From contig JBBCKD010000004.1 in NCBI GenBank assembly GCA_037191015.1, positions 4,013 through 68,012 of the forward strand: a stretch of DNA of 64,000 nucleotides, in the 5' to 3' direction. The stretch is from Spirosomataceae bacterium. GTDB taxonomy: Bacteria; Bacteroidota; Bacteroidia; Cytophagales; Spirosomataceae. Below, in pieces: positions 26,938 to 29,520 of this stretch (its first letter is position 1; each line of letters starts with the position of its first letter). A model generated the notes under the pieces. The model was not told the DNA's origin. It worked only from the letters and a program-made list of their open reading frames with translations, and searched no databases. Both the position numbers and the translations under genes were made by a program.

Positions 26938-27183
26938 TTACTGCTCTGTGACCGTCCCCTTTTTTTCCTTGGCAGGTACCGGATCATATCCGCTGGTTCC
27001 CCACGGATGGCATTTTGAGAGGCGCTTTAACCCTAAAGCGGTACCTCTCAAAATACCCCATTCCCTGACGGCCTGGATCATATATTCAGAGCATGTAGGA
27101 GAATGTCTGCAGGAAGAAGGAAGAAATGGCGAAATACACCATTGATAAAACCTGACCGGCCCGATGATCAACCATTTAAACAT
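26938..27183 (-). CDS. yidD: membrane protein insertion efficiency factor
   Basis: CRHSPTCSEY...KCHPWGTSGYDPVP. Confidence 0.93.
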   Translation of the reverse strand: MFKWLIIGPVRFYQWCISPFLPSSCRHSPTCSEYMIQAVREWGILRGTALGLKRLSKCHPWGTSGYDPVPAKEKKGTVTEQ

Positions 27184-27234: not shown

Positions 27235-27627
27235 CTATTCTCCCAGATAGCTAACTTCCAATACTTCAAGATTCCGGATACCCGCGGGCATCTTCCAGGC
27301 TATTTTACTCCCTTCCGACAGGCCGATCAGCGCCGAGCCCATAGGAGTCAGCACCGAAATCTTATTCTGCTTCACATCGGCAAACTGCGGAAGCACTATC
27401 GTTATCTGCATTTCCCTCTTGCTGTCAAGGTCTTTCACTTTCACCTGCGAATTAAGCCTGACTGCTCCTGACGGCATTTTATCGTTTGCCAGGACTTTTG
27501 CCCGCGAGATTTCATAAGATAATGTCATTTCCTGCTGGTTTCCCTGAGCAGAAACATTTTCAGTCAATGCAGTTAACAAACGATAATCTTCTTCACTTAA
27601 CAGGACCTGATTAGTTTCTCCTTTCAT
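27235..27627 (-). CDS. Rnk-like (short GreA/GreB-family) RNA polymerase-binding factor
   Basis: 130 aa; ISVLTPMGSALIG Gre C-terminal domain with only a short N-terminal coil. Confidence 0.85.
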   Translation of the reverse strand: MKGETNQVLLSEEDYRLLTALTENVSAQGNQQEMTLSYEISRAKVLANDKMPSGAVRLNSQVKVKDLDSKREMQITIVLPQFADVKQNKISVLTPMGSALIGLSEGSKIAWKMPAGIRNLEVLEVSYLGE

Positions 27628-27756
27628 AACCGACTTGGATAAAATTAAACTTGTTTTCTTTAAAATCTATGTGAATAGTAAACATCTTACCTTCCTCATA
27701 AGGATGAAAGGTACTATGTCCCCGAATTCAGCAATCAGATTACCTATATTCGGGGG

Positions 27757-27909
27757 CTAACAAAAAAAAGCTTTGGGAGTGGGGAAAAAGTGATGCTGTC
27801 TGGTTGAACCAGCCTTTCCCGGTACAGGCAGGGATAATACGTCCGGGTACGCGGGAATAATAGTTTCCCACGTCGTCGAAAGACAATATATACTGTTCCC
27901 TGTACTCAT
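27757..27909 (-). CDS. unannotated 50-aa uORF upstream of the Rnk-like gene
   Basis: Hand translation MSTGNSIYCLSTTWETIIPAYPDVLSLPVPGKAGSTRQHHFFPTPKAFFC*; ATG preceded by A-rich TTTTAAA. Confidence 0.5.
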   Translation of the reverse strand: MSTGNSIYCLSTTWETIIPAYPDVLSLPVPGKAGSTRQHHFFPTPKAFFC

Positions 27910-28035
27910 TTTAAAAGTCTGAACTTATTAAACCCCTCCTTCCTGATAAAAGTTCTCCGGGCAGGCAGAATTTTGCAGAAACTACGCCCGGACCTCCAGG
28001 CTGGCTGGCGTCGCCGAAGAATTCGTCGCCCGGGC

Positions 28036-28066
28036 AAAAAAAATCCCCGGCTAAAAAACCGGGGAT
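28036..28066 (-). terminator. intrinsic terminator of the SSS-DHDPS-DUF3748 operon
   Basis: ATCCCCGG/CCGGGGAT stem followed on the minus strand by a T run. Confidence 0.75.
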
Positions 28067-28116
28067 AAGACAGATTCGGATACTACAAAAGAAATACCGG
28101 CGGTTCAATCCGCAGC

Positions 28117-29520
28117 TTAAAGCTCTTTCAAAAGGAATATCTGCAGATGGCTTTCCCCATCCTCTCCTTTTATGCGCCTGTTAAAAGCAAGCGTCTTTCC
28201 ATCATATGACCACACGACTGCCCCCGTCGGTGCGCTGTCGTCGGGATATTTCTGGCTGACCCTTTCCGTACGGCCTGTTTCCACGTCGGTCACAAATACG
28301 CTGTTATCGCCCAGGTAAGCCACCCTTTTCCCGTCGCGGCTGAAATTGAAAGGCCCTTTTACCGAAAATTCATTGTTGGTGACCTTTCTTACGTCGCCTC
28401 CGTTCGGCGACACCACATGAAACTGTATCACTCCGTTTTCATCAGCTGCCAGGAAGCCTATATTTTCCCCATCGGACGATGATCGCAGCCAGTGACGCGG
28501 CTTATTGCTTACCCCTCTTTCCAGCCGGGTAACCCGTCTTGATACCAACGCCTGCGGTACAGGCAATCTCACGCCCGGATCCGGAGATATCTCAAGATCA
28601 TCGATCCTGTCCAGCAGGTCATCCGGGATATCGACCACAAAGATTTCGGTTTTGGTGTTGCCTTCTTCATCCCTTACGTTTCCCTGGTAGGCTATCGCCC
28701 GTTTCTGGCGGGTGCCGTCACTTTTCATATAACCGTTGGTCCCGATCCAGCACTCATCATAAGCCTTGTCGACCTCATCGCTTCCCGGCTTCGGATTATC
28801 CTTTACTTCCGCCACGATCACCGAAAACATTTCGCCGTCATTATTCTCCAGGCTCCCGTCATCAGGCACCGAGACCTTACGCCCCGGCACCATGATGCCG
28901 ATGGTACGCAAATCCTGCGCAGCGCTGCCCTTCTTTGCGGTCTGCTCGATCAGGTAGTCATTATACGTATAGCTGATCCACCCGTCGCTGCTCCATGTAT
29001 GGGCGTGTGTTCCGCCCCGTAGAGCTCCCTTCACAAAAGGCGGGTTCATACTCCGTGCATCCAGGAAAACGGGCTTCATCGGGTTATTGATATCCACCGC
29101 AACCCCGGTTCTCCTGGTCATTGCATAAGGGTTTTCCTCGTTTGCGTTCCGGATGCCATGAATGAACAGCACCCTGTCGCCGGCCGGGGAAAAGGTCACC
29201 GCGCCCAGGCCGGGGCCGAACTCGGTCTGGTTTTCGGTTTTGTACAATGTCCTGATCTCCCCGGTTTCAGTATTCACCATGGCCACCTCCCCGGCGGCGC
29301 CTATCCCGGAATCCACCGACCTCGAGTCGTATACGATCCATTTATCGTCAGGCGAAAAAACTTCAGTGGAATTGATACAATGCCCGGAAGGATCCTTTGT
29401 CAGCTGTATTTCCTGGTATGATTTCATAGTCGATTGCGATGTACAGGCAGCCAGCGCGAGCGGTACGGCCGCCCACATCAGCTTCTTTTTATACTCAAGG
29501 TAATATCCCGCCCGGTACAT
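28117..29520 (-). CDS. DUF3748 (YidR-like) beta-propeller lipoprotein
   Basis: LAAC lipobox; FSPDDKWIVYD, GALRGGTHAHTWS, RHWLRSS motifs. Confidence 0.8.
   Translation of the reverse strand: MYRAGYYLEYKKKLMWAAVPLALAACTSQSTMKSYQEIQLTKDPSGHCINSTEVFSPDDKWIVYDSRSVDSGIGAAGEVAMVNTETGEIRTLYKTENQTEFGPGLGAVTFSPAGDRVLFIHGIRNANEENPYAMTRRTGVAVDINNPMKPVFLDARSMNPPFVKGALRGGTHAHTWSSDGWISYTYNDYLIEQTAKKGSAAQDLRTIGIMVPGRKVSVPDDGSLENNDGEMFSVIVAEVKDNPKPGSDEVDKAYDECWIGTNGYMKSDGTRQKRAIAYQGNVRDEEGNTKTEIFVVDIPDDLLDRIDDLEISPDPGVRLPVPQALVSRRVTRLERGVSNKPRHWLRSSSDGENIGFLAADENGVIQFHVVSPNGGDVRKVTNNEFSVKGPFNFSRDGKRVAYLGDNSVFVTDVETGRTERVSQKYPDDSAPTGAVVWSYDGKTLAFNRRIKGEDGESHLQIFLLKEL

Follow-up and report, generated by a model that had tools for sequence, protein, structure and literature searches.

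Cells have few means of reading the state of their ribosomes, and leader and arrest peptides belong to them. Nearly all characterised peptides of these kinds come from Proteobacteria and Firmicutes, where they control amino-acid pathways, antibiotic resistance and protein export. In Bacteroidota, the NSP-stop/NAP-stop arrest peptides, which carry an N-terminal localisation signal and end in Pro-stop, lie upstream of secA/secDF and regulate the protein-export machinery (PMC10987492). The genes greA and rnk are themselves preceded by attenuators in Proteobacteria, bacilli and Clostridia (PMC2965389, Naville and Gautheret 2010), as with the greA/GraL leader (PMC2836576), and no greA/rnk attenuator has been reported for Bacteroidota (PMC2965389). 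Here we describe a short upstream open reading frame (uORF) on the minus strand of a 64,000-nucleotide (nt) stretch of DNA from a Spirosomataceae bacterium (contig JBBCKD010000004.1; hereafter the window), which stands before an Rnk-like gene of the GreA/GreB family. On balance we favour the reading, drawn from comparison of sequences, that this frame is translated and serves the Rnk-like gene as a cis-regulatory leader ORF, acting through the position of the ribosome at an adjacent hairpin, H1. A preliminary description of the locus had cited the attenuators before greA and rnk as background, correctly as regards Proteobacteria and Firmicutes (PMC2965389), and had proposed a Bacteroidota leader peptide linked to an Rnk/Gre-family gene. 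That proposal proves substantially right, the linkage being present in all but one of the 30-plus leaders examined.

A conserved reading frame and hairpin upstream of rnk

The frame runs from an ATG at 27909-27907 to a TAG at 27759-27757 and encodes the peptide MSTGNSIYCLSTTWETIIPAYPDVLSLPVPGKAGSTRQHHFFPTPKAFFC, with CTTTTAAAATG standing 5' of the start codon. Six of its 50 residues are proline, and its 3' end, ...GCT TTT TTT TGT TAG, contains a run of eight thymines (T8); 129 nt separate its end from the ATG of the Rnk-like gene at 27627. In all of this the frame exists as first described. The 130-amino-acid (aa) protein behind it passes the NCBIfam Rnk equivalog model NF004396 with 115.3 bits against a cut-off of 109 and has a GreA/GreB C-terminal domain. 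Since 48 ORFs of at least 30 aa occur in the 5 kb around the uORF, the frame alone is not beyond chance, and it is deemed real on the strength of cross-genome comparison rather than of its length.

Within the genus we compared five other species, and the leader is present in all four in which rnk was found (G001, G002, G003 and G005; the window genome is G000). The frame is exactly 50 codons long in every rnk-carrying genome of the genus. The uORFs of G003 and G002 are 92-94% identical to that of the window, whereas identity over the ORF body falls to 45% in G005 and 39% in G001; despite this divergence, the latter two still start with ATG, run for exactly 50 codons and stop 2 nt short of H1. 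At the C terminus they have RYFFPTPKVFFC (G005) and TRFYPSHKDFVL (G001), compared with HHFFPTPKAFFC in the window. Elsewhere the frame is mostly 48-64 codons long, with two short tandem units in addition. The preliminary description had named loss of the frame in homologous leaders as the sign that would tell against it; in fact every related leader found has kept the frame.

That the frame is coding is argued by three patterns. No stop interrupts the unconserved ORF body in any of 18 lineage representatives, for which composition-matched shuffles give 0.10-0.35 each and a product of about 1e-13.5. At the C terminus, most leaders carry the motif YYISNFKDFNT and the window FFPTPKAFFC; in the protein alignment (A4) the Lys (K) and Phe are invariant in 20 of 20 peptides, and the window keeps [FY][FY]..K[AD]F. 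The Lys is residue 43-48 in almost all full-length members, and the sequence that precedes it is unalignable. In the Dyadobacter-type block ...F.SFC.KLYYISNFKDFNT, variation is almost confined to third codon positions, with TTT/TTC, AAG/AAA, AAT/AAC, ACT/ACG, TCA/TCC/TCG and TAT/TAC interchanged. Over the 16 Dyadobacter-type codons around and 5' of the motif, the variable columns number 5, 6 and 15 at codon positions 1, 2 and 3, and the proportions of synonymous (pS) and nonsynonymous (pN) differences are 0.84 and 0.15, a pN/pS of 0.18 in frame versus 1.61 and 0.78 off frame. The N-terminal 30-35 codons are relaxed (pN/pS 0.3-0.9), and a common composition or hydrophobic pattern is absent from the N-terminal two thirds in alignment A4. 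From these patterns it is very likely that the uORF is truly translated and selected.

Directly behind the frame lies H1, which in the window begins 2 nt past the TAG and has a free energy of -17 kcal/mol (z -2.9). Over 21 sequences, 92.9% of cells are paired, and in 500 shuffles the observed score is never reached. Three of the eight pairs have changed on both sides (A-U to G-C, U-A to C-G), further standard pair types occur at others, and Chitinophagales carry the compensated variants CCCTG/CAGGG, CCCAGGC/GCTTGGG and CCCAAGCC/GGCTTGGG. The nine G-U cells argue for an RNA structure on the minus strand rather than a DNA palindrome, and H1 is the sole RNA element common to all leaders.

The distance between motif and hairpin is nearly constant. 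From the first base of the Lys codon to the first pair of H1 there are 19 nt, in the window as in all other units across two orders, save one with 18. No leader has its stop before K+5. At least four lineages have it exactly there, as the window's genus, G053 and the two tandem units do, and the others have it at K+9 to K+16. Counted from H1, the TAG of the window falls in frame on the Leu/Ser codon that Dyadobacter has at K+5, which indicates that the functional peptide ends at K+4.

The preliminary description had stressed proline richness and the T8 run. Both are there in the window, but the former is limited to the window's genus, and the latter is likewise found in that genus only, being absent from Dyadobacter- and Chitinophaga-type leaders. 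What is found family-wide instead is the aromatic-rich ...[FY][FY]..x-K-[DA]-F motif with the hairpin behind it, and as a whole the earlier interpretation is partly supported.

Outside the genus, four further genera of the family have H1 110-230 nt 5' of the Rnk orthologue together with an ATG frame of 48-59 codons. A covariance model of motif and H1, run on 401 family genomes, gave 17 hits, all of them single-copy and with rnk 100-240 nt downstream. Additionally, a degenerate DNA pattern combining the codons for N-F-K-D-F-N with CCCCGRR was scanned on one genome per species in 185,579 species. It matched 14 times, in 11 Dyadobacter, one Telluribacter metagenome-assembled genome (MAG), one Cytophagales MAG and one 'Flavipsychrobacter' MAG, every time with the frame and a downstream rnk, and these matches and their taxa place the family in Spirosomaceae. 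From public collections, a profile built on 20 peptides drew another 25 small proteins, 38-95 aa long and mostly 51-63, all unnamed or 'hypothetical' and without a Pfam domain, one of them from Chitinophaga niabensis. When 400 genomes from across the class were searched in six frames, three more families proved to have the motif. The uORF family spans Cytophagales (Spirosomaceae, Dyadobacter and allies, the window's genus included) and Chitinophagales, and many of its hosts are soil Bacteroidota.

In every leader the uORF is 5' of, and co-oriented with, the gene after it. The Chitinophagales leader heads putative operons that end in the Rnk-like gene: in C. niabensis the order is uORF, a 59-aa two-helix membrane ORF and the Rnk-like gene, in two MAGs a membrane-anchored glutamate-synthase-domain protein (PF01645) takes the middle place, and on other contigs the uORF directly precedes the Rnk-like gene. 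The latter follows at loci L068, L071 and L072, and at L071 and L072 the uORF is only about 70 nt from the next gene, a gap filled by H1. At the Chitinophagales loci L068 2719-2898, L070 2883-3104 and L071 2244-3818, where either the PF01645 protein or a two-helix ORF of 59-73 aa comes after the leader, we also observed that the short ORF resembles the N terminus of the larger protein (M[ST]RN.P..S.R..., WYLALVIT). In another family of the class (G604, L081 ~1416-1750), two units of 26-28 codons, ..RLYFFSNYKDFNS and ..RIYAISSFKAFGN, stand in tandem 5' of one Rnk-like gene, each with its own H1-like hairpin, like tandem attenuators.

No family was matched by the window peptide in Pfam and NCBIfam, or by two related peptides in NCBIfam. 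Rfam, searched at permissive thresholds with the window and three related leaders, gave no match on the element (27690-27920 in the window); a weak rnk_pseudo match of 17.2 bits at 28036-28130 (gathering score 55) is the terminator of the neighbouring gene. Searches of the literature, both for the motif strings and for rnk leaders of Bacteroidota, brought up no paper.

Proposed coupling of ribosome position to rnk expression

A candidate promoter lies just upstream of the frame. Its -7-like element TAAGTTCA stands 10 nt before the ATG, the promoter as a whole aligns with a perfect TTTG-N20-TAATTTTG in G005, and a TAAcTTnn box stands 3-12 nt before the uORF ATG in most lineages (for example TAACTTAG, TATATTAG, TAACTTTG and TATGTTTG); the consensus of the Bacteroidota -7 element is TAnnTTTG. 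This arrangement suggests that the transcript is leaderless, or has a very short leader, and begins with the uORF. A scan for sigma-70-type promoters, which are irrelevant for Bacteroidota, gave matches only inside the ORF.

We propose the following mechanism of how the leader might work. Transcription from this promoter would give an RNA with a very short 5' leader or none, on which the uORF is translated first. The N-terminal two thirds of the peptide would need only to be translatable, and the last 12-20 residues (...[FY][FY]..x-K-[DA]-F-x-x) would act inside the ribosome as a nascent-chain motif, slowing or arresting it with K+4 in the P site and K+5, the TAG stop in the window, in the A site. 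A ribosome shields roughly the next 12-15 nt beyond the P site, and one paused with K+4 in the P site would thereby cover the whole 5' arm of H1, which would re-form once the ribosome has left. The state of H1 would then decide what becomes of the downstream region, which comprises a second hairpin (H2) and a T-rich tract in the window and T-tracts in about half of the relatives. The output, a putative ON or OFF response to some sensed signal, would be either transcription read-through as opposed to termination, or access to the rnk start. The leader peptide probably contains a nascent-chain arrest motif, and we infer that the conserved event is the dwelling of the ribosome at the K+4 codon, where it holds H1 open. 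It is the fixed 19-nt spacing to H1 that would tie ribosome progress to rnk expression, and because this spacing is invariant the model is directly testable.

What follows H1 is less uniform. In the window, H2 alone has a free energy of -8.7 kcal/mol, which is not significant, and H1 and H2 together have -29.7 kcal/mol (z -3.9). The stem of H2 is kept, with a variable loop, in the four closest same-genus relatives, and a stricter terminator scan calls its position a terminator in G003 only. Among 27 leaders, 13 have at least seven T in nine positions within 45 nt after H1, versus 5.2 +/- 1.9 in shuffles, and in the next 45 nt the count is 3 of 20. This enrichment of T-tracts points to premature termination. 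H1 would be an antiterminator in G001 and G094, where its 3' arm has an alternative pairing in a short hairpin with T5-T8 behind it, and a terminator in one tandem unit, where a T-tract comes directly after H1. We sought a conserved expression platform with minimum free energy folds of 17 leaders, a strict terminator scan and duplex searches, and found none that was consistent across genera. The duplex search for a partner of the K-D-F codons returned, in several lineages, a GTCCTT/GTCTTT segment complementary to AAGGAC; no consistent partner of either the motif codons or the H1 arms emerged, and both this pairing and terminators built on the 3' arm of H1 were rejected as a general model for being inconsistent across genera.

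Several observations weigh against this scheme. The region after H1 is unalignable between genera, and the role of H1, antiterminator or terminator, would differ by lineage; in the window itself H1 and H2 are compatible and can form together, and the tail is weakly T-rich. The genus also conserves a box, TAATTTTA, which lies 12 nt from the start codon of rnk and could be a second, separate promoter of this gene, although no -33 element is found at the right spacing. The linkage is also imperfect in both directions: the metagenomic leader L070 has no rnk downstream, the sole exception noted above, and rnk lies directly downstream of another gene, without the leader, at L013, L015, L018 and L019 (four Dyadobacter) and at L020 (genus g41). 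The leader is therefore patchy even inside one genus. Furthermore, the selection check called for in the preliminary description (dN/dS), which found the C-terminal block of relatives under purifying selection, came out otherwise in the trio G000, G003 and G002. Their uORFs differ at 8-10 of 150 positions with a pN/pS of 0.5-0.9, based on few changes, so that the constraint looks to be on the RNA rather than on the peptide. All codon positions of the trio are equally conserved: their divergence (~6-8%) is roughly a quarter to a sixth of that at synonymous sites of rnk (0.28-0.43), and this nucleotide-level constraint agrees with the significant foldability of the whole window leader (-81 kcal/mol, z -3.1). 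Peptide and RNA are probably both under selection. As a separate observation, nucleotide conservation is very strong in the trio while G005 diverges freely.

The main rival to a cis-acting leader is a free-standing micropeptide of ~50-57 aa that works in trans, with or on the Rnk-like factor or RNA polymerase, and that has its own promoter and its own terminator (H1/H2 and T-tract), rnk being expressed separately. Such a product would explain the amino-acid-level selection on the C-terminal ~20 residues, the T-tracts enriched after H1 and the possible -7 box before rnk; several members have already been called 'hypothetical protein' by gene callers, and the synteny with rnk is kept, as would be expected of functional partners. 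We nevertheless regard it as unlikely, considering that the N-terminal two thirds are nearly free to vary and that the tandem versions are 26-28 aa long. The place of the stop varies between K+5 and K+16, a distance of 19 nt from Lys to hairpin would have no obvious meaning for a free peptide, and at L071 and L072 the H1-filled gap is too short to hold both a terminator and a new promoter.

A layout in which a uORF ends at or in a hairpin that is followed by T-rich tracts also recalls the classical attenuators that sense supply. Here the sensed quantity could be a charged tRNA or a tRNA modification (through the Phe/Tyr/Asn/Lys/Asp codons), or else T-runs before H1 could provide nucleoside triphosphate-sensitive coupling of the pyrBI type. 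The pyrBI leader is of similar length to the uORF, the T8 or T9 of the window's genus lies just 7 nt before H1, and the alternative pairing of the H1 3' arm in G001 and G094 has a trp-like 2:3 / 3:4 logic. We hold this to be improbable, however, given that there is no run of one regulatory codon, that the downstream gene is not biosynthetic and that the T8 run is limited to one genus. Moreover, synonymous codons (TTT/TTC, AAT/AAC, AAG/AAA) swap freely while the amino acids stay fixed, a pattern that speaks for the peptide over its codons or U-content. Somewhat less probable again is that the leader works as a structured non-coding RNA, of the riboswitch-like or protein-binding kind, and contains the open frame only incidentally. 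The leader does fold better than shuffles, H1 covaries and the trio is conserved equally at every codon position; yet the relatives vary at third codon positions, with the low pN/pS in the uORF frame only, the frame is retained through unalignable sequence in all 18 lineages, and nearly all keep an ATG 43-48 codons ahead of the Lys. Rfam gave no match, and H1 is the one structure shared between genera. ORFs this short are common in the window, but a chance intergenic frame without function is effectively refuted by the conservation tests (frame retention, H1 and pN/pS) and keeps a negligible probability.

Neighbouring and genus-specific features

The coordinates of the leader and of the features around it are collected in Table 1. 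The terminator at 28066-28036 marks the 5' boundary of the rnk leader unit, and the uORF ATG follows ~125 nt further on. At the other end, yidD follows rnk only in the window's genus and is absent from that place in all other genera, which puts it outside the conserved unit. On the same ground, a link to membrane insertion through yidD (MifM-like) was rejected.

Table 1 Features of the rnk leader region, in window coordinates
Feature	Coordinates	Strand	Remarks
Intrinsic terminator of the upstream DUF3748/beta-propeller gene (29520-28117)	28036..28066	-	10-bp GC-rich stem and T8
Candidate Bacteroidota-type promoter: -33-like TTTA (27950-27947), 19-nt spacer, -7-like TAAGTTCA (27927-27920)	27920..27950	-	alignment to G005
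Leader ORF (uORF), 50 codons and TAG	27757..27909	-	50 codons in 5 of 5 same-genus genomes
C-terminal block FFPTPKAFFC, Lys codon 27774-27772	27760..27789	-	window form of [FY][FY]..x-K-[DA]-F-x-x
T8 run in the last codons (GCT TTT TTT TGT)	27762..27769	-	genus-specific: T8 or T9 in four species
Hairpin H1: CCCCGAAT (27755-27748), 20-nt loop, ATTCGGGG (27727-27720)	27720..27755	-	covariation, folding
Hairpin H2: TACCTTTC (27713-27706) / GGAAGGTA (27695-27688), then T-rich tail AGATGTTTACTATTC	27672..27713	-	weak, terminator-like
TAATTTTA, possible -7 box of a separate rnk-proximal promoter	27640..27647	-	read from sequence; uncertain
Rnk-like GreA/GreB-family gene, 130 aa, behind the leader	27235..27627	-	PF01272 GreA_GreB, E 1.9e-22
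yidD, 51 nt 3' of rnk	26938..27183	-	PF01809, TIGR00278

Two insertions were seen on the 5' side of the leader. Between the DUF3748 terminator and the leader promoter, the window has a ~54-nt GC-rich, partly palindromic insert, GCCCGGGCGACGAATTCTTCGGCGACGCCAGCCAGCCTGGAGGTCCGGGCGTAGTT (27975-28030). G003 and G002 lack this stretch, which may represent a small insertion resembling a repetitive extragenic palindromic (REP) element or a miniature inverted-repeat transposable element (MITE). In G005 (L004 ~360-1250), DUF3748 and the rnk leader are separated by an inserted gene of ~300 codons, the product of which looks by eye like Rpn-family (PD-(D/E)XK) recombination-promoting nuclease/transposase-like proteins.

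The uORF of the window's genus has further peculiarities of its own. The heptamer T TTT TTT (zero frame GCT TTT TTT), a 7-nt spacer and H1 (27748-27770) together have the canonical geometry of -1 frameshifting, and a shift would continue in the -1 frame as ...LLAPEYR*, resembling the ...TLAPDLI* tail of Dyadobacter leaders. Programmed -1 frameshifting was rejected as a family mechanism, as only four species, all of this genus, have the slippery run. Across the genus (window, L008-L011), the uORF is poor in the trinucleotides TAA, TAG and TGA in each of its three forward frames, with 0-1 found versus 4.5-5.6 in dinucleotide shuffles, a depletion that is not seen in G053 or G094.

Comparison with known leader-peptide systems

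The TnaC and SpeFL peptides, of the tna and speF leaders of Enterobacteria, share with this family a short uORF, predicted here too to head the transcript, a peptide of which only the C terminus is conserved and a 100-240-nt spacer between the uORF and the regulated gene. As in those leaders, the predicted critical position of the window has a stop codon in the A site, and SpeFL is likewise rich in aromatic residues near its end. There is, however, no sequence similarity, and arrest at the stop is ligand-dependent in TnaC and SpeFL, whereas here arrest is predicted. TnaC and SpeFL act by blocking Rho, while the present family has a conserved hairpin at a fixed distance, often with T-tracts, and in most relatives the uORF runs 4-11 codons past the predicted arrest point. 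ErmCL and ErmBL offer a different parallel, in that the regulatory variable is the position of the ribosome on the leader ORF relative to the 5' arm of a hairpin. These leaders are 10-20 codons long, require an antibiotic and expose a Shine-Dalgarno site, whereas Bacteroidota mostly do without Shine-Dalgarno pairing and the target here is the gene of a transcription factor.

Like the trp/phe/his and pyrBI attenuators, the leader ORF ends beside U-tracts and hairpins that may form as alternatives, and a GC-rich hairpin inside the uORF body could be a pause site in the manner of the trp 1:2 hairpin. Unlike in those systems, tandem regulatory codons are absent: the leader peptides have no cluster of a single codon for the amino acid of a regulated pathway, as trp, his and phe leaders do, and it is the amino-acid sequence rather than codon identity that is conserved. 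Terminator/antiterminator pairs are not consistently recognisable either, being seen in G001 and G094. The greA/GraL leader and the rnk leaders of Proteobacteria (RF01772) place the same gene family behind a 5' regulatory leader with premature termination; they are described as non-coding terminator/antiterminator RNAs, and cmscan gave no match to them on the element described here. The NSP-stop/NAP-stop peptides are likewise encoded by uORFs of Bacteroidota and have a conserved C-terminal end beside the stop codon. They differ in motif and target, for the window peptide ends in ...FFC* and precedes an Rnk-like gene, and neither a signal sequence nor a hydrophobic N terminus was seen in alignment A4 (20 peptides).

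By analogy, the closest relatives in mechanism would be TnaC and SpeFL, with their arrest at a stop codon, and ErmCL, in which a stalled ribosome melts a hairpin arm. We file the uORF as a new family inside the known class of leader-peptide regulators and as a member of no described family, because a trp-type 'regulatory codon run' is lacking, Rfam models are unmatched and the arrest peptides of Bacteroidota differ; its motif is matched by nothing in Pfam or NCBIfam, by none of the known arrest peptides compared and by no paper found. A bolder and distinctly tentative reading, which we think has perhaps one chance in three, is that of a new class of arrest-peptide sensor, present in two orders of Bacteroidota on a leaderless or near-leaderless transcript, in which a stall at YYISNFKDF/FFPTPKAFF holds the conserved hairpin open and so couples the state of translation, or a ligand in the tunnel, to synthesis of a secondary-channel factor. 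If true, this would be a direct feedback from translation elongation to the machinery of transcription elongation. Set beside the characterised leader peptides, the family would differ in its host, as Bacteroidota have unusual translation initiation and ribosomes, and in its target, a factor of the GreA/Rnk type, which binds RNA polymerase at its secondary channel. Such a target suggests a regulatory link between translation and transcription elongation, and could offer a handle on the physiological role of Rnk.

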